A stretch of DNA of 64,000 bases, taken from the NCBI GenBank assembly GCA_965205425.1, contig CBDBGZ010000008.1, positions 32,001-96,000 of the forward strand, in the 5' to 3' direction. A model generated the notes under the pieces. It had not been told where the DNA came from. It searched no databases and saw nothing but the letters and a program-made list of their open reading frames with translations. This document shows, one piece after another, positions 5,756 to 19,721 of this stretch. Source of the DNA: Nitrosopumilus sp. GTDB lineage: Archaea > Thermoproteota > Nitrososphaeria > Nitrososphaerales > Nitrosopumilaceae. Every line of letters starts with the position of its first letter. Position 1 is the stretch's first letter. The position numbers and the translations under genes are program-made.

Positions 5756-5929
5756 ATGCTATCTGATTTCCTTGTCTTCTTATTCACATATCTATGTGAA
5801 ATCTTTAAAAACATTTGCACTCTTTTGCAACACATGAGAATGGCTACCGCTAGAGATGATCCCATTCATTTTCAAAAGATGAAACCGGACACATATCTAT
5901 TTGAGGATCTCCCTCAGTACCATCTTCAT
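5756..5929 (-). repeat. inverted copy of 16056-16229 (IS110 3' non-coding end plus start of the next IS110 transposase)
   Basis: About 174 bp nearly identical to the reverse complement of 16056-16229; abuts the MITE end at 5930. Confidence 0.9.
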
Positions 5930-5975: not shown

Positions 5976-6165
5976 AGTCTTTTTACAATTATCTTTATAT
6001 TGATATTTCTTTGTGATATGATTAGAACATGAATAAGCAATATCTGATAGTGATATCTGCAATAATATCTATAATGCAGTTAGACAAAAAATAAACAAAC
6101 GTTGATAATGTTTCTGTGATTCAATAATCCTAAAACCTAATTGCTAAATATAATAGTAACCATAT

Positions 6166-6647
6166 GTGAATAAACAACGAAATTTAGATGGTACTGCTGA
6201 TTCTATAGTTTCTAAAAGATACACCTCCAAGAAAAAACCAAAGAAAATCATTAGGACTAGAAAGACAAAACCCATGACCTATGTCGGAATTGATTTGCAC
6301 AAAGAATTCTTACAGGTCGAAACAATGGATGATAAAGGACATACATTATTCAATGAAAAAATTACAAACACCAGAGGGGATATCAAAAAAGCATTTTCTG
6401 CAATCCCAAAAAACTCAAAATGTGTAATGGAATCATCATCTGTCTGGTATGGCGTGTTTAGGTTTCTGCGAGACGAACTAGGATTTGATGTAATACTATC
6501 AAACCCATATCACACAAAAGCAATTGCAGCATCAAAGAAAAAAACTGACAAGATTGATGCTCACATCTTGGCAGATTTGCTAAGAGGAGGATACATCTCA
6601 TCTTGTCATGTACCAGAAAAAGATACCGTGCAAACAAGACAACTGGT
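6166..6647 (+). pseudogene. IS110-family transposase, 3'-truncated
   Basis: YVGIDLHK, MESSSVW and KTDKIDA..LA motifs. It stops after the DEDD domain at a foreign GGTCTGG junction. Confidence 0.9.
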
Positions 6648-6900
6648 GGTCTGGACCCCTCTAGAGTAGGACCAGTAGCATACATACACTTTTCAGATAA
6701 CTTGGGAGGTTTACTTTCATGGTAAAGAGCAAGTGATATGTTTACAATATTGGGCATTATTAGACGTCTTGCGTAATTATAGAGATTTTTTCTCAAATTT
6801 TGTATTTTAACAGAATTCATACCTGAAAATTCAAATTTCTCAACCAATTTGAAAAATCCTGCAGCAAAATTCACGCCTAGAAATAATTACGCAAGACGTC

Positions 6901-9515: not shown

Positions 9516-10611
9516 TACCTCGGAGCATAATTCTTTGCAATTTTTCAAAACAAATAGCAATACTTTTTGATCAGTAGTTAGAAATAATTTCATGGACATT
9601 ACAAATGACGAGTTACTCCAGGCCTACAAAAAAGAAAAGTACGGTAAGAAAAAGGAAAGACTGCATGCAATGTGTAAGATTAAAATCAACGAATCCACAA
9701 TTGCTGAAACTGCCAACCAAATGTTTTGTACATACAACTCTGTAAGGAACTGGCTTGATTCATTTGAAAAATACGGACTAGAGGGCCTGGAGGACCCCCC
9801 TCGTTCTGGCCGTCCGCCATTAATTTCACACAAAAAATTACAAAAAATAGAGCGTACATTTAAGAAAATTTCAAACGGCATGACTCCAAAAAAACTGGTA
9901 CAATTCATATTTTACAGAACACGCATTACATATCATATCACTCATGTGCGTCCTTTGATGCACAAATGGAATCTAAAACCAAAGGTTCCCCAAAAGGTAC
10001 ATGTGCGAGCAGCATCCAAGGATGTGTGCCGCAAGTGGAAAAACCGCATCATTTCACGCATAGAAAAGGCAAAAAAGAAAGGTTTTACAGTATTCATCCA
10101 AGACGAGTCTGTATTTGTAGACGATGTACGTCTTGGTAAAAAATACTGGACAGATGTACACCAACGAATGATTGTACGTTGGAGAGGATCACACCAAAGA
10201 TTTTTGGTTTATGGGATGGTGACTGATGATAATCAAAGTTTTTTTAGATCGTATGAAAAATTTAATTCAATTGCATTTATGGATTATTTGGAGGCAGCTC
10301 GTAGAAAATTCGGGAAAATATTTGTTATCGTCGATAGGGCACCGCAACACAAAGCTAATGATGTAAAAGAATATCTGCGTAAAAACAAGGATGTCAAACT
10401 GGCATATCTTCCAAGAGGTTCTCCACATTTGAGTATGATTGAAGAGATTTGGAGACAGTGCAAACATGTTAATGTTGAATCAGAATTTTATGAATCTATT
10501 CATGAGATGAGACATACAGTTATGGAATATTTTAGAACCCATAAATTTAATTTGAATATGTATCAGTATTTTGCAAGAACAATAAATTGAAAAGACTTAT
10601 GATCTTGGGTA
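9516..10611 (+). mobile_element. IS630-family element (single-ORF transposase 9592-10590)
   Basis: HTH, RSGRPP, QDES / VDRAPQH / IEEIW. Imperfect TIRs TACCTCGGAGCATAATTCTTT / TACCCAAGATCATAAGTCTTT with flanking TA. Confidence 0.9.
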
Positions 10612-10690
10612 TAAGCATTGTATGCAATTAACCTGTACAACATCTCATTGTCCTGAGTTGTAACATTTCTTGATGTGACATCTCCGGACG

Positions 10691-10732
10691 TGGTGTATTT
10701 TGGTGATCTGATCATCTAAATACACCAGAACC
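10691..10732. mobile_element. palindromic MITE remnant (...CACCAGAACC family)
   Basis: Same hairpin sequence type as 3923-3969. Confidence 0.55.
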
Positions 10733-10822
10733 ATTGAGAACATGATCAAATTGAATCAATTACACAACTCATCTAATAATTGAGTTTATCTGATATAAAA
10801 AATTCTCAAAGTCCGTTGGTTC

Positions 10823-11248
10823 GTGACGGCAGCTTGTGTGTTCTTGACTGAATCAATAGGCAAAGGTGATACCCAATCCGTCCTAAAAAAATTCCAAACA
10901 GCAGCTTGTGTGTTCTTGACTGAATCAATAAGCAAAGGCCAGGCTGCAAAGTCATTAGGGATTTCATCTCAGACCTTGAAAAAATACCTTGGATTTGCAG
11001 CAGTTCCAGAGAAACTAAAACAATTTGTTCCAAAAGAGTTGTCTCGTGATGATTGTACTAGATTATATCAAATTGTATCAAATGTACCAAAGGCCGTATC
11101 CATTGCAGAGAAAATTATTCCGTTAGATCAGAAACTACGAAAGGAATACCTCAAGGCTTTAAGTAGATCTCCAAAGTCATCACATCTAAAATTATTAAAA
11201 AGAGCCAGAGCAGGATTACTCCAACAAAGAGTCACAATTGAATTAACT
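10823..11248 (+). pseudogene. internal fragment of a ParB-like gene (paralog of 49942-50748)
   Basis: Near-identical peptide SLGISSQTLKKYLGFAAVPEKLKQF... It lacks the N-terminus, is cut by the IS end at 11249, and has an internal 30-bp duplication. Confidence 0.85.
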
Positions 11249-13447
11249 GAGACTTGGGCATAATGATTTACAAAAATAATTTCCAATATTTCTCTAGCAG
11301 CACAACATTCTCTTTACAGTTCTTGGATTCTCTGCACCAATTGCACAGTTGTAGTAAACTGTCAACTGATACACAAGAACACAAACCAACACAAATGATT
11401 TGACATTGTGCAATCCCTTTACAGGCAATACTCTGATGTCAAAAATATCTTTGAGATACTCAAATAGAGGTTCAATTGAGACTTTTCTATCTGCATACAG
11501 CTCTTGCCCAATTACAGAATTGTAAAACTCTACGAGTTTTATTCTCTCTGGCGGCGTATGCGGGTATTGTTTTATTGGAGTAATTAGTCTCAGATTTTTC
11601 TTGTTGCTAAATTGATGCAGTGAACCGTTGTCATATGCAGGATCACATAAGATATTCTCGACAAATCCTGCAAGAGATTCAGTTAGTATTTCATACATCT
11701 TGCCGTCATGAACATTTGCAGTTGAGACATCAGCAGACAATGGAACTATCAGTTTTCCAGTACTGCAACTCATATGCAGTTTGTACCCAAATATCCAACC
11801 CTTTGATTTTGAAAAACCCCATTTTGCATCTGTGTCAATTCCTGAGATTGGAATTCTATTCTTTTTCATATCTGACTTGTGCCATACTGGACCTACAGCT
11901 TTTAGCATGGAACTATCCACTGATGCAGATATGTCATCGACTAGTTTCTCTGATACAAACAGACTTTCCATATTACTGATTATATCACCAATTGGCAGAA
12001 CTTGGAATCTCCTGTCAATGGTTCTTCTGTTTGGGATTTGAGTTAGTCTGCAAACCTTGAGCAATTTATCATTGATACCTTTAGTCGAAAGGAAATAATG
12101 TAATGTATTGTTGCTTGGAATTCTCATCCAAGATTTTATGATGGACAGCTGTACCATTAGAATTGTAGAGTATACGTACGGTCTACCAAGTTTTCAGTAT
12201 CTCTTCATACAAAGACAACATTCCCACCAAATGTAACATACCAATAAGAAGTGATTCCGATAGAATCTTGTATCTTTTCCGGAAATTATTTCACCCCTTA
12301 ACTAGGAGAGCATCATTCCCATACTATCGTATGCGTGGGTATCGTGGCATACCTATGGTAAAGTTAGATGAGAATAAGATCAGGTGGATTATACAATCTA
12401 AAAATGAAAAAGTCAAGAATTTAGATATTTCAGTAATCCTCAAGATAACGCCTAGAAGAGTACAACAAGTCTACTCTCAGTACAAAAAAACCAAAAAGAT
12501 TCCCACACTCAAAAGACCAGGGCGTCCAAAAAAGCCAGTCACTGTACACGAGATAGAGCTAGTCAAACAAGTTCAAGAAAAATTTCATACAAACGCACTA
12601 TACCTTGAGAAAATCATATCAAAATTGTACAATACCAAGATAAACCACAATCGCATCCACAAGATTATGCTAGATGAAGGATTATCAGTTGAGCAACCAC
12701 GGAAAAAGATGAGAAGAAAGTGGATCAGGTATGAACGTGAATATTCAAATTCACTGTGGCATACTGACTGGCACACAATACATGATTCACGCTGGGCAGG
12801 AAAACAACTAATTGCATTTGAAGATGATGCCTCACGATTTATCACGGGTTTCGGAGTGTATGATGAGGCAACATCTGTGAATTCTTCTGAAGTACTATCT
12901 GATGCAATAAAGAATCACGGTAGACCAGCATCTGTACTATCTGATAATGGAAAACAGTTCACATCAAATGTCAATACTCTTGATCATAACAAGCCAGTAG
13001 ACTTTGAGCAGCAACTAATGAGACATCACGTAAAGCACTCTCGTACAAGAGTGAGACATCCACAAACAAATGGTAAGCTAGAAAAGTTCTGGGATATCTT
13101 TGAGTGTAAAATAGAATACTTTGAGTCAGTGGAGCAGTTTATGCATTGGTACAATCACATTAGAGTTCATGGCGCACTAGACTTGGATAACATGGAGACA
13201 CCATCTGATGCGTATCACTCCAAGATGATAACAAACGAAATACTCATAGACCCAAGCATTCTATGGAGGAATTACTCATGAAAGTGACACGAAATAATTT
13301 CTGGAAAGAACATCCGATAGAATCTTGTTAGGGATTTTCATTTGTTTTGACATTACAATGAACAAAACATGATAAGATCCTTAGCTTTTTCTATTTGAAT
13401 AATTTGAGAATTGACTCAAAAATTAGAATTAGTTATGCCCATGTCTC
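11249..13447 (-). mobile_element. IS982/IS5-like DDE element, disrupted by an IS481 insertion and a frameshift
   Basis: TIRs GAGAC(T/A)TGGGCATAA. Motifs VDSS / FGYKLH / CDPAYD / IEPLF. The true start is probably ATG 13341 (MKIPNKILSES), interrupted by IS481, with a +1 shift near 12190. Confidence 0.8.
12271..13312 (+). mobile_element. IS481-family element, 1042 bp, 15-bp target duplication
   Basis: rve motifs WHTDW, DDASR, SDNGKQF, PQTNGKLE. TSD TCCGATAGAATCTTG at 12256-12270 and 13313-13327. Confidence 0.92.
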
Positions 13448-14505: not shown

Positions 14506-14866
14506 GTTCTTAGGATCAAGGATTGTATACTAGATTAAAAGAGTGGCGATTAGAAGGAACTGGTAAGTTAACGAGAATTGAATAATTCTTTGAGGATTTG
14601 GAAATGTATTATAAACCATGAACTATCCAAAGTTAAATGTAAAGAATCTTATTTTTGCTTGGCACATATTTGACGTATGTATTCTTGAAGATCTGGGGAT
14701 ATAGAAATCTTCTTTCCATCTAGTATGACGTCGTTTTCTCGCATACGCGCTATCCTTTTTTGGAGATATGTTTTGGAGATTTTTGTGTGTGCACTAATCT
14801 GAGATGTAGTGTGAATTGCATCATGTACGGTACAGCACAAAGCAGACACATCGTAACCATAACCAT

Positions 14867-16195
14867 ATGTGCCAAAATCAGCTAGGAAATTAGATGGTAC
14901 TTGCATTCGTATCAAGAAAGTAAGAAATGCAAACAAACACACTACCATTCCTGAAAAAAAATATTTGATGTTTGTAGGATTGGATGTTCACAAGAACTCT
15001 GTACAGGTGGCAGCAGTAGATGAGATTGGCAAATTGTTATTTAACAAAAAGATTTCCAGTGATTTTTCTGCTATTAGCAAAATTACATCCAAAATTCCAA
15101 AGAACGCAAAATATGTTTTAGAGTCATCATCTGTCTGGTATGGCCTTTATAGACACATGACAGACAAATTACATCTTGATGTTATACTATCTAATCCATA
15201 CAACACAAAGATAATAGCATCATCACTCAAAAAGACTGATAAAATTGATGCGTACCATCTTGCAAATTTGCTACGAGGAGGATACATTGCAGAATCATTT
15301 GTGCCAGATCACACAATTGTGCAATACAGACAGCTTGTAAGACATCGACACAAGATTGTGCGCATCATTGTAAAGATGAAGAATTCCATACATGGTATTA
15401 CACTACAGGAGGGAATCCATATCAAAGCAACACCATTTTCCTCAGAACACATACGTGCACTTGGAAAATTGGAGAGTTATAGAATAGATTCGTACCTACA
15501 AAGCATAAAATTTCACAAAAAGGAGGTTGCAAAAATAGATTCCATGATACGTCGCATGGTAAATGATAATCCTGACGTGTGTATTTTGACATCAATATCT
15601 GGAGTTGGACCATACACTGCATTGAGCATATTCTCAGAAATTGCAGAGATTAGTAGATTTTCAAATTCTCGCAAGTTATGTGCATATGCAGGGATTGTTC
15701 CATCGGTGAGAAATTCTGCAGATACAATACATCACGGAAGAATTACAAAGAGAGGAAGCACCATGCTAAGATGGTTGCTAGTGGAGGCAATTCATGCACA
15801 TGTTAGATGCGCACCAGATAGCGACATTACAAAATTTTACAATCGCATTAAGAAAAAGAGAGGGACCTCAAAGGCAGCAGTTGCTGCTGCATCAAAGTTA
15901 TTGCGTGTCATATATTGGATGCTAAAGGAGAGGAGAGAATTTATTCAATGTCATCAATAATTTGTAAAACATTACAGTTAGGAGTTTGGCCGCGTTTTCA
16001 CATTGAGGATGCATAATACCTCGAAACTATAACCGCGGTTTCACCTAATAAATGGATGAAGATGGTACTGAGGGAGATCCTCGAATAGATATGTGTCCGG
16101 TTTCATCTTTTGAAAATGAATGGGATCATCTCTAGCGGTAGCCATTCTCATGTGTTGCAAAAGAGTGCAAATGTTTTTAAAGATTTCACATAGAT
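14867..16195 (+). mobile_element. IS110-family element A (intact transposase 14869-15960, long 3' non-coding end)
   Basis: VGLDVHK, LESS, KTDKIDA, AYAGIVPSVRNSA (catalytic Ser region) and GRITKRG. Ends AT|ATGTG...CACATAGAT. Confidence 0.9.
15975..16195 (+). ncRNA. candidate IS110 bridge/seek RNA (element A)
   Basis: Nested stems TTAGG/CCTAA, CCGCG/CGCGG, GAGG/CCTC (twice) and GATGAA/TTCATC around internal loops. Homologous to 17310-17518. Confidence 0.65.
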
Positions 16196-17518
16196 ATGTG
16201 AATAAGAAGACAAGGAAATCAGATAGCATAAAAAATGAATCTAGTTCCAAGGTTCGTAAATACTCGGCTCCAAAAAAGATTACAAACAAACAGATTAGGA
16301 AGAAACCAAAGAAAGGCATGTTTGTGGGCATTGACCTGCACAAGAAGTTTCTTCAAGTAGCAATAATGGATGATGCAGGCAAAGTATTACAAAATGACAA
16401 AGTGGATAACACTCATGAATACATAAAAAAGCATTTTGCAAAAATACCAATTTCTGCAAATATTGTAATGGAATCCTCATCAGTCTGGTATGACACGTAT
16501 CGATTTCTCACAGATACTTTGGGATACAAAAACGTCACACTCTCAAACCCATATTTGACAAAAGCAATTGCTGCATCAAAAAAGAAAACAGACAAGATTG
16601 ATGCCAAGATATTGGCAGATCTTTTGCGAGGAGGATACATTGCCACATGTTATGTTCCAGACAAAAAGATTGTACAACAAAGACAGCTCGTAAGATATAG
16701 GAAAAAACTAATCCAATGGAGAACATCTGTCAAGAATTCAGTTCATGGAATATTGTTACAAGAAGGAATCAGGATTCCAGGAGTTACATTTACTGAAACA
16801 TACAACAGAAGACTCAAGGCACTAGGAGATTACAGAATAGACGGATTCTTGCAACAAATCAGCCACACCTTAATTTACAGATTGCAGAGATTAATTCCAA
16901 AGTGTATGCTGCTGTAAAAGTTAATCCTGATGCAATTTTAATAAACTCGATTCCAGGAATTGGGCATTATTCTTCGCTTGTCATTGCATCAGAGATTGCA
17001 GATATTGAAAGATTCAATGATTCTCACAAACTGTGTGCATATGCAGGAGTTGTACCATCAGTTAGAAACTCTGCAGATACAATACACCATGGCAGAATAA
17101 CAAAACGAGGAAGCATGACATTGAGATGGGTTCTAACCGAGTGTATACACACTCATGCAATACATGCCAAAGATAGTGACATTACAAAATTTTACAATCG
17201 CATTAAAAAGAAAAGAGGATCATCCAAAGCTGCAGTAGCTGGTGCATCAAAGATCCTGAGGGTGATTTATTGGATGTTAAAGGAGAGGAGAGAATTTGTA
17301 CAAAATTATAGTTAGGACTGCAAGTCGCGTTGTAATTATTGAGGGACAAGGCCTCGTTTGATAACTGCGAACAATCCTAACTAGGATGAAGATAGCATTG
17401 AGAGAATAGTCTCGTATGGATACATGTCTGCCATCTTTTGATTGAAACCATTCTCTAGCGAAAGCTATGCCCTGATGTATGGAAAGAGAGGAAATGTATA
17501 AAAACAATTCACATGGAT
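16196..17518 (+). mobile_element. IS110-family element B (transposase 16198-17315, frameshifted near 16866)
   Basis: ORFs 16120-16917 and 16902-17315 join into one IS110 transposase after removing about 2 nt (CACAC). Sub-terminal IR ATGTGAA/TTCACAT. Confidence 0.88.
17310..17518 (+). ncRNA. candidate IS110 bridge/seek RNA (element B)
   Basis: Same stem scaffold as element A with compensatory changes (GAGA/TCTC versus GAGG/CCTC) and different loop sequences. Confidence 0.65.
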
Positions 17519-18281
17519 AATCACAGAGCAGATGGTACAGACTGTCCAGTCTACATTTGAAAAGTTCAGGTGTTCTGCAGTATTCTTGGAGAAAATAATT
17601 GATACTACTGGAACACACATACCTCACAATACCATACACAAAATTATGAGAGATGAAGGGTTGGCAGAAGCTCAGCCAAAGAAGAGGAGAAGACGAAAGT
17701 GGGTTAGATACGAGAGGACATATTCAAACTCCATGTGGCATACTGACTGGAAGAAGCTAGATGATGGCAGATGGTTCTTATGCTACCAGGATGACGCATC
17801 AAGGTTTATCGTCTCTCATGGAGTGTTTGCAGAAGCTACTACAGATAACGCACTTGTGGTATTACATGAGGCAATTGCAAAGCACGGTAGGCCTGCATCA
17901 ATTCTAACTGATCATGGCTCCCAGTTTTATGCAAACCAATCAGAATACAAGAGAAAAGGAGCATCACAGTTTGAGCAAGAACTGGTTAGACTTGGAATAA
18001 AACATATCATGGCAAGAGTGAATCATCCCCAGACAAATGGAAAGTTAGAAAGATTTCACGGCGAGATTCAGAGAAAGCAGAAATGGTTTGGCACCATTGA
18101 TGAGCTGGTCCACTGGTACAATCACATAAAGCCACACATGTCACTTGACTGGGATAATCTTGAGACTCCTGCAAAGGCATATGCAAGAAAGATGCCCGAG
18201 AAAGGAACAAGAGTTATTGATGAGCAGACAGGAGAAGAATACGATGTCAAATAAGGGACGAACTGATTTTGGGATACAACA
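17519..18281 (+). mobile_element. IS481-family element, second type, 5'-truncated
   Basis: WHTDW, DDASR, TDHGSQF and PQTNGKLERF motifs; ends ...GGGATACAACA. The HTH N-terminus is missing at the IS110-B junction. Confidence 0.85.
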
Positions 18282-18340
18282 AGGAAGCCACATGGATACA
18301 AATTATAAATAGAATCAATTTGTGTAGTATTAAAGTGACT

Positions 18341-18402
18341 GTGAATAATAAAATAAAGACTGTAATGTTTGCGGTTTTGATATTTTCAATGATTGTTATC
18401 GC
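18341..18402 (+). pseudogene. signal-peptide stub of a secreted gene related to 38690, cut by ISH3
   Basis: (M)NNKIKTVMFAVLIFSMIVIA versus MNDKTKAAMFSLLIFSIIVTV, with a similar upstream TAAATAGA..AATTTGT. Confidence 0.55.
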
Positions 18403-19721
18403 CAGTAGATGGGAAAGTAACTCAAATTACACATTCTAGGAAATAATTATTTTTGTTATTTCTAAAGTAATGAATAATTATCTTTACAAAGAAATATTTG
18501 AGAATTTCAATTGATATTATTGGTTTGTGATTTTGTACATTAGTTTCTTCTGAGATAATCAAATTAGCAATTATCCATGCATTGTACAAAATCAATGAAT
18601 AGTAAAAATACAACAATCTTATGGATTGGTTTGAACTGGTGGTTTTTGGTCTGAACCTTCCCACACATGCATATCCTGTTTCAATTCCCCAACGTTTCTT
18701 GTAATCAGTTGGAATGTTTTGTATGTTATATGATATTTCTTTTGGTGAAACGTTTGTTGCAAACACAACATACTGATCAATAATATTTGATTTTTTTCTT
18801 GCATTTTTGTTTGGTAGAATAACTAGATTAAATGATTCTACATGTCCTGATGATGATTTTATTGTGTATGGCGAGATTGACTTTCTATCTCCATTAACGT
18901 ATTGTAAAATGGCATCTTTGATTCGAGAATTCTTTTTTGCAGGCATTAGAAATTTCAGATTCTTTTGTTTTATTTCTGAAATTGTTCCAGCTGTGAAAAA
19001 CTCCCTATCCACTAGCAATAGTTTAATCTTGATTCCATTATTGATGCCATCAGAGAGTAATTTACGCACAAAACCGGCATTTGATATGTTGTCATACAAA
19101 GGATAACAACCTAGTTGAGCCCTGATTCTTTTTTCAACGCACTGCATGGTGCAGTAACTCTCAAAATGAGTAGTACTGTTTTTTGATTTTGATTTTATTA
19201 AAGAATGGTTTGGCAATTTGTCATATCTTGGGATTAGATGTTTGTCAATTGCCACAGTAACTGGTTGCTCCAATACTCCCAATTCTTGTAATTTTGATAC
19301 TGTACTATCCAGTGAACGATGTAATTGAATTTGCATTGTTTTTTGTGATATTTTTGATATGATTTTTCTCAACCATGAACCAGTTGGAGAATGATTCTGG
19401 GATTCCATTGCCAGTCTCTTTAATCCAGATTCAGAATATGAATTTCCCAAACACAATGACATGATAGAATTATGTGCGTCTGCATTGTGGAACCGTGAGT
19501 TATTTTTACTAGAGCATGGAAACAACAAGATATTGTACATTATTTTAGTGATAATCTCAAATGCTTTAGATAGTATCACGCCTTGGTGTGTCATGGTATC
19601 AAATGAAGTACAATGCATATTTGATGGAGTGACATACTTTCATCAAGCTTTTTCTATCTGAATAGATTGATTGAATAATTGATAGTTTTTGATCTAAATT
19701 GAGTTACTTTCCCATCTACTG
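18403..19721 (-). mobile_element. ISH3-like (IS4 superfamily) element, intact ORF 18422-19618
   Basis: TIR CAGTAGATGGGAAAGTAACT; motifs VAIDKH, LVDREF, YKKRWGIETGY. No TSD (flanks differ). Confidence 0.9.

Follow-up and report, generated by a model that had tools for sequence, protein, structure and literature searches.

The closest described systems to the locus reported here are the IS1111-group elements with their seekRNAs, and IS621 and ISCro4 (IS622) with their bridge RNAs. In the IS1111 group 7 bp on the left and 3 bp on the right lie beyond inverted repeats (IRs) of 7–17 bp, usually 11–13 bp (PMC11187229), while IS621 and ISCro4 combine an enzyme with a DEDD motif and a catalytic serine with an RNA carrying two internal loops (PMC11208160, PMC11208158, 10.1101/2025.05.14.653916); three further papers served for comparison (PMC13626964, 10.1101/2025.10.25.684509, 10.1101/2024.06.21.599552). 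We examined two IS110-family elements, A and B, in a 64,000-nt stretch of Nitrosopumilus sp. DNA (GenBank assembly GCA_965205425.1, contig CBDBGZ010000008.1, positions 32,001 to 96,000; hereafter the window, to which coordinates refer and on whose plus strand all parts of A and B lie). A preliminary description, made from the letters of the window, had treated A and B as two independent neighbors, each followed by a candidate bridge RNA. The evidence presented below indicates instead that A is nested in the left end of B. Our joint reading, which we hold to be very likely, is that A and B are IS1111-like RNA-guided elements, that A was nested by way of loop 1 of its RNA, and that such composites collapse to chimeras. 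In the following G000 denotes the genome of the window, G236, G377 and G184 are other genomes, and L-numbers designate loci.

Enzymes, ends and predicted bridge RNAs

The recombinase gene of A (14869..15960) is an open frame of 363 aa in which both IS110 domains, the DEDD RuvC domain (PF01548) and the Transposase_20 domain (PF02371), score above cut-off, and it reaches 243 bits against NF033542 (cut-off 140). Residues D39, E85, D124, D127 and S283 are kept in A and recur in 66, 64, 65, 65 and 66 of the 66 distinct full-length relatives, respectively; the enzyme thus appears to be intact, as had been proposed. Its catalytic serine is aligned with the Ser loop of IS621, and its matches in the PDB are weak (9t56, E = 5e-8; 8wt6, E = 6e-7). 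The closest named relatives come from Nitrosopumilus assemblies (up to 99% identity) and many copies of the IS110 family are present across G000; a plasmid search yielded only relatives of about 35% identity, most of them haloarchaeal. The gene of B (16198..17315) is frameshifted near 16864, and 2 nt are missing near this position in one contig of run X6. By their domains, catalytic residues and conservative insertion both elements are assigned to the IS110 family.

Across relatives the consensus layout is left target-T-AACYAT-ATGTG...CACAT-RGA-T-right target, with 7 bp (TAACYAT) on the left and 3 bp (RGA) on the right beyond the IRs. The left end of A (14860..14871) consists of the 7-nt extension TAACCAT and the 5-bp IR ATGTG, with a probable GTG start at 14869, and its right end (16174..16195) of a TATA-like box (16174–16181), CACAT and AGA (16187–16194) and the core T (16195). 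In B the segment 16196..16229 contains the left IR ATGTGAAT, with a probable GTG start at 16198, and the internal site treated below, and the right end (17497..17518) again comprises a TATA-like box, CACAT plus GGA and the core T (17518). The earlier notion of almost no left end, with the start codon about 2 nt inside, does not hold, as the element starts 7 nt before ATGTG. The proposed AT core gives way to a single base: the nucleotide preceding the left-junction T is variable (A 26, C 18, G 14, T 8; n = 66) and that following the right-junction T is A in 56 of 73 cases, which places the predicted crossover at the invariant T (TA in most). IS621, in contrast, has a fixed CT core, while in A and B only T is invariant with a register slip of 0–2 nt. 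The IRs are short, 5 bp in A (ATGTG/CACAT) and 8 bp in B, and differ in this from the 11–13 bp of most IS1111 elements; B falls within the wider range of 7–17 bp and A below it. As the IR of A is too short and both elements lack a fixed dinucleotide core, we file A and B as IS1111-like. In some loci (L060–L087, L123 versus L138, L081–L083) one guide is accompanied by right junctions one base apart beside the core, which suggests imprecise or one-strand joining.

The right target half of B, AATCACA, continues into the 3' part of a multi-copy IS481-like element (17519..18254; IS481-like part 17532–18254), which is the insertion site of B-type elements and whose NCBIfam IS481 match stays below cut-off. 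Empty copies of it, 16 in G000, read GGGAA-T-AATCACAG, and in G236 B is inserted exactly at this site with no target duplication, as is also seen when L214 is compared with L194/L205. In 27 of 28 types, counted with no composition control, a TATA-like word starts 11–13 nt ahead of CACAT, and in 23 of 25 types the reading frame stays open for the first 19 codons from the GTG. A circle would join ends 10 bp apart, with a predicted junction of right end-T-AACCATATGTG, and would thereby place the TATA-like box 28–30 nt before the GTG as a leaderless junction promoter; a distance of about 28–30 nt is the spacing of archaeal promoters. The 7 + 3 bp layout, the lack of duplication and the putative junction promoter are shared with IS1111 seekRNA elements (PMC11187229), but there the promoter has -35 and -10 boxes instead of a TATA-like box, whose promoter role here is presumed. 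A scan of viral contigs for the left-end pattern gave eight matches, all eight with neither an open frame from GTG nor an RNA, and these were taken as chance.

A non-coding region follows each gene (about 235 nt in A, about 200 nt in B), as in the IS1111-group elements ISEc11, ISKpn4, ISPa11 and ISPst6 (PMC11187229). An Rfam search of these 3' regions returned no relevant family, only two chance matches. In an alignment of 22 diverse 3' regions, picked by hand, two-sided changes were found at 14 of 26 predicted pairs. A 27-pair structure had 94.8% of cells paired, compared with 31–42% for slid partners, and its covariation (0.341 versus 0.211) was reached by none of 500 shuffles; having been derived from the alignment of related sequences on which it was scored, the structure is favored in this comparison. 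A covariance model built from 13 relatives, with A, B, a further type termed Z and one A-type and one B-type relative held out, gave only two strong full-length matches in the window, at 15974–16103 (102 bits) and 17308–17434 (86 bits), and matched in 24 of the 151 genomes of the class. These segments are the predicted bridge RNAs of A and B, with two units of stem, internal loop and hairpin; in B guides lie at 17331–17339, 17357–17366, 17390–17399 and 17415–17426. The shared two-unit scaffold with compensatory changes that had been proposed from A and B was thus upheld by covariation in 22 relatives, and stems, model matches and guides support a bridge/seek-RNA architecture downstream of the transposase. 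Each of the two 3' regions very probably represents the bridge/seek RNA of an IS110 element, and the pair is very probably functional and of a known kind. Most relatives carry a small conserved hairpin (CTAGC-N4-GC; 16125–16173 and 17445–17496 in the window) downstream of the two-loop RNA and ahead of the right end. At L252, L254, L255, L258, L262 and L273 the RNA model matched with no transposase match within 1500 nt upstream, and these loci are possible RNA-only, non-autonomous elements.

We then compared guides and flanks in 88 distinct junction records of 28 RNA types, using one record per type and shuffles as reference. Loop 1 was parsed in 82 of the records, and 73 had a left end. The 5' strand of loop 1 matched the right flank at 5.52 of 7 positions (shuffled 3.21; 23 types; 0/10,000), a slip of 0–2 nt being permitted in data and shuffles alike, and its 3' strand matched the left flank at 3.11 of 4 (shuffled 1.02; 19 types; 0/10,000) with nested and chimeric records excluded. 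The target loop thus carries guides for both target halves. The strings on which the preliminary description rested were all located, with 16085–16095 identical to 16190–16200 (ATAGATATGTG), 17416–17422 to 17513–17519 (ATGGATA), and the reverse complement of 17331–17339 (ATAATTACA) matching 17517–17525 (ATAATCACA) at 8 of 9 positions; its view that loop 1 binds the target, and that loops would track flanks in further copies, agrees with the matches across 19–23 element types. The donor assignment of loop 2 stands for one strand: the 3' strand tracks the right end (4.93/5, shuffled 4.28; 28 types; 0/10,000), while the 5' strand agrees only partly with the true left terminus (3.83/6, shuffled 3.21). 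Three loop-2 bases after the core show a weak match to the first target bases (1.79 versus 1.38 shuffled; 38/10,000), resembling the handshake guides of IS621 (PMC11208158). That the RNA is vestigial or unexpressed here and the protein finds targets alone is an idea to which we give hardly any credence. The weak folding of single sequences would suit it, the 3' regions of A and B being barely better than shuffles (z = -1.40 and -1.20), as would a look through the sequencing runs, which turned up no RNA data set, but guides change with flanks over 38 distinct guides (5.39/7, shuffled 3.34) while the stems are kept.

In the RNAs of A and B the top-strand target match is located 5' of the bottom-strand match, as in IS1111 seekRNAs (PMC11187229). 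Two internal loops and the DEDD plus Ser enzyme are shared with IS621 and ISCro4, and the second, IS621-like loop, together with a sibling insertion sequence (IS) end as the target of A, also sets A and B apart from IS1111 elements. They differ from IS621 in having the RNA at the right end, a reversed guide order, and a loop-2 5' strand that fits the true end by 3.83/6 but an internal site almost perfectly. Judged from sequence, the A/B RNA would act in the manner of a bridge RNA, though of a type other than that of IS621. Near-identical B-type RNAs with four different right-target guides are found in the G000 copies X1–X7 (C5:207255, C5:226925, C9:39379, 88011, 483636, 1146195); some of these copies have flanks that agree more closely with the guide of a different copy, which may point to action in trans.

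Insertion of A into sibling left ends

Loop 1 of A (AACTA-T / ATGTGAAAA) spells the left end of sibling elements. The reverse complement of its 5' guide (15995..16003), ATGTGAAAA, agrees with the sibling left IR ATGTGAATA at 8 of 9 positions, and its 3' guide AAACTA-T-AACC (16024..16034) corresponds to the sibling left terminus, the core and the first bases of the left end of A; in one variant of A the agreement with the sibling end is complete (9 of 9). Uninvaded siblings read TAACYAT-ATGTGAA, while in the window the left terminus of the host, core T plus AACCA (14854..14859), is separated from the host body by A. A inserts between the terminal 6 nt of a sibling and its IR and start codon, in accord with the programming of loop 1 to the sibling left end (AACYA-T-ATGTGAA); the RNA would be transcribed, and then bound by the enzyme.

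There are 13 right ends that follow an A-type loop 1, and each of them continues into the sibling sequence ATGTGAATAA (3 in G000, 9 in G236, 1 in G377), the hosts being of B type in 11 cases and of Z type in two, and sibling TAACYA precedes 27 of 29 A-type left ends in the three genomes. An empty and filled pair is provided by L214 (B alone) and L194/L205 (B plus A), which have both flanks in common. Triple termini fit insertion of A into an A end. The doubled terminus was found in 3 of the 401 genomes of the family, with no control matches. Free sibling ends number 6 in G000 (all of Z type, with no free B-type end) and 10 in G236, and G377 has 64 pattern matches. The targeting of sibling ends by A appears to be new here, and the nesting itself is well supported and has a precedent in kind. 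Our literature search, which covered mainly openly accessible papers without their supplements, turned up nothing about the targeting of sibling ends, an internal donor-guide copy or the archaeal clade in question; archaeal elements may be listed in Supplementary Table 5 of PMC11208160 and in bioRxiv supplements.

The nesting changes the meaning of the junction at 16190–16200, which had been taken for the donor or circle junction of A. It is the right end of A, T, and the first 5 nt of the target, i.e. the left IR of B, and the PCR product suggested as evidence for circles is already present on the chromosome. The 3' strand of loop 2 (16084..16095), which contains the 11-nt match noticed earlier, reads right end, core T and first target bases in a handshake-like manner. 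If the tandem had arisen by homologous single-crossover integration of a circle into a resident copy, 16190–16200 would be a donor junction after all and chimeric copies would be the parents. The 11-nt match of loop 2 to the junction would fit such an origin, and so would the fact that single copies with an A gene and a B RNA are common in G000 (six). However, stand-alone B elements begin TAACTAT-ATGTG, the empty and filled loci differ by A alone, loop 1 of A spells the junction, the internal sites described below link each gene to the RNA of its own element, and the switch points of the chimeras are not the same. We consider this origin very unlikely, and the circle-integration model was rejected as contradicted by the stand-alone B ends and the empty/filled pair.

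Recombination between the similar 3' halves of the two genes very probably collapses composites into single chimeric elements. The six chimeric copies in G000 join a 5' gene part of A to the RNA of B, with switch points in three intervals (15751–61, 15822–52 and 15912–22), and as the internal sites pair each gene with its own RNA we regard them as derived forms. A composite would retain the outer ends of B and move with B RNA and an enzyme supplied in trans; the B frameshift is common to two composites at different right targets, which fits movement with the enzyme in trans, or gene conversion. Loop 2 and the right end of A are nearly identical to those of Z in G000. A remnant of a second composite (5756..5929, minus strand) consists of an A/Z-type loop 2 and right end followed by a B left end that is cut just after the internal site, and beside it lies a truncated Z-type IS110 element (6157–6648, plus strand) with a 56% identical enzyme, its own target loop and a loop 2 as in A. 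A footprint at L195 (G236) retains the left target, the doubled terminus and the first 30 nt of A and then passes into unrelated DNA, the body being deleted from the internal site. In G377 a short transposase-less repeat is present in many copies (L207–L235); it contains an IS110 left end of about 40 bp that stops at the internal site, followed by the right target of a full element (L073), and is an amplified deletion footprint. At L134 and L143 (G184) two IS110 genes stand head to tail with an RNA behind the second only, an arrangement repeated three times in this genome.

Several observations count against our interpretation of guided insertion. The two remaining A left ends are one truncated copy and one in IS630-like sequence without a sibling terminus, A-type nesting is confined to the 3 of 401 genomes and to one genus, and copies from one and the same genome do not represent independent events of insertion. 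G000 has 54 sites with no more than 2 mismatches to the 14-nt target of A, none of them occupied by A (48 non-sibling sites and 6 Z left ends), and guide sequence alone may be insufficient to explain the site choice of A. In the window the IS481-like right flank is paired with a left flank that is not its own, from which it follows that the locus has either recombined between copies of A or been misassembled; none of the contigs listed from the four contig sets runs across it. The left guide of B matches the IS481 site poorly, and the right flank is a poor fit in several types (2–3 of 7 in L002, L077 and L126). Kinship among types inflates the shuffle-based significance, and the regular expressions that delimited ends and loops were designed after viewing the data. 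The predicted circle junction is absent from G000 and from the four contig sets, contigs being prone to drop rare forms.

A copy of the loop-2 guide in the coding start

The 5' strand of loop 2 in A (16060..16069), which is a partial complement of the left terminus, is a copy of 14892–14901 within the start of the coding region. This internal site (14891..14901), identical to the loop strand, repeats the left terminus imperfectly in inverted orientation as well, and in B the internal site at 16220–16229 equals the loop-2 5' strand over 9 nt. Across 25 types the internal site, located 21–33 nt after ATGTG, is identical to the loop-2 5' strand at 139 of 150 positions, whereas 96.9 are expected from shuffling and none of 20,000 shuffles reached the observed value; over 14 distinct strands the figure is 75/84, chimeras being excluded from the counts. 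Eleven different 6-mers match exactly, and the site is in frame in 24 of 25 types with a spacing free in steps of 3. The available text of PMC11187229 makes no mention of such a copy for IS1111 elements. A held-out check comprised 14 loci, four of them with a transposase 5' end (L250, L259, L263, L264). L259, an element of another family, has an 8-nt internal-site match, and the B-type L250 matches as judged by eye.

In the explanation that we tentatively prefer, while rating it at somewhat below an even chance, the 5' strand of loop 2 would pair with the template strand at the internal site and hold the complex on the start of its own element, which would either damp the element's transcription or offer a place for loading next to the true end with its weak match. 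Template-strand pairing is favored by the last three bases of the site, which follow loop 2 more closely than they follow the RNA partner strand or the terminus: 68 of 75 match loop 2, as against 0–2 of 3 per type for the terminus. Three observations tell against it. Pairing of these three bases with the RNA partner strand reaches 43/75 for Watson-Crick pairs and 62/75 with G-U pairs, the internal site is absent in two relatives of 32% identity (L263 and L264), and the chimeras X1 and X2 share a crossover but differ in the right flank, despite an internal site that mismatches loop 2.

The site might alternatively act in RNA or single-stranded DNA, where a hairpin with the terminus and start would block read-through translation, or where it would compete for the partner of loop 2 in the precursor; its identity with loop 2 would then follow from shared partners. 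In IS10 a hairpin prevents read-through transcripts from being translated. The left terminus plus ATG can indeed pair with the site as an imperfect hairpin (157/192 positions in 24 types), the GUGCCA start of A folds onto the internal site with -4.5 kcal/mol, and both the spacing in steps of 3 and the 62/75 partner pairing with G-U would suit this mode of action. The poor agreement of the last three bases with the terminus speaks against it, and so do L060, L124, L127 and L128, where these bases still equal loop 2 although partner pairing is largely lost. We regard it as doubtful, if worth keeping in view.

Less probable still, and in our opinion rather improbable, is a role of the internal site as recombination half-site or alternative end, serving reactions on one side only, the inversion of the start segment, or an excision with a short left-end footprint left behind. 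Three rearrangements break at or just behind the site (the window remnant at 5756–5929, L195 and the G377 repeat family), and half-match reactions have been reported for IS621 (10.64898/2026.08.31.748434). On the other hand, the 3' end of the site has no conserved core base, G000 contains no clean inverted left end and just one imperfect candidate, and no inversion or circle joints were present in the four contig sets, from which rare forms are dropped. Microhomology of 3–4 nt with the right end could account for the deletions, and most other truncations break elsewhere.

A wider proposal, which we put forward as a possibility on the unlikely side, gives one RNA of this archaeal clade two jobs. 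Besides guiding recombination it would bind, by the 5' strand of loop 2, the perfectly matched site in the first codons of its own recombinase gene, for RNA-guided self-repression or end loading. The proposal also makes A an obligate parasite of its own family. A would then split the sibling end from its start codon, ride on sibling ends, and shuffle enzymes and RNAs as composites collapse.

Genomic surroundings and implications

The window holds a dense cluster of IS elements at 9592–13281 and 17532–19721. It includes an IS630-like element (9592–10590), DDE_Tnp_1 elements at 11294–12157 and 18422–19618, the latter with 27-bp inverted repeats at 18403 and 19695, and an IS481-like element (12268–13281).

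IS4321 and IS5075 are reportedly IS1111-group elements that insert in the terminal inverted repeat of Tn21-family transposons. Their targets are thus transposons of another kind, while A targets the donor end of its own family, giving composites, self-insertions and gene/RNA chimeras. Accumulation of IS110 modules at one locus is known from expanded or tandem IS110 loci (10.64898/2026.08.14.744561), and modular movement from the ISPpu9/ssr9 modules (PMC12288879). Growth of those loci is ascribed to duplication and to half-matches by the resident RNA, however, whereas here a separate element is aimed at a sibling end.

Two features go beyond the routine, namely the guide-programmed nesting in the left end of the element's own family and the strongly co-varying internal guide copy. 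The internal copy provides a lead on the role of the donor loop in IS1111-like RNAs and on self-limited expression. For tool design it implies that a donor with the terminal bases only may miss a needed or inhibitory site. More generally, the bridge-RNA family of A, B and their relatives in ammonia-oxidising archaea is readable and naturally reprogrammed, and its ends, core and guides are predicted exactly; it shows how targeting by a guide RNA can be directed at the element's own family and give rise to new combinations of enzyme and RNA.

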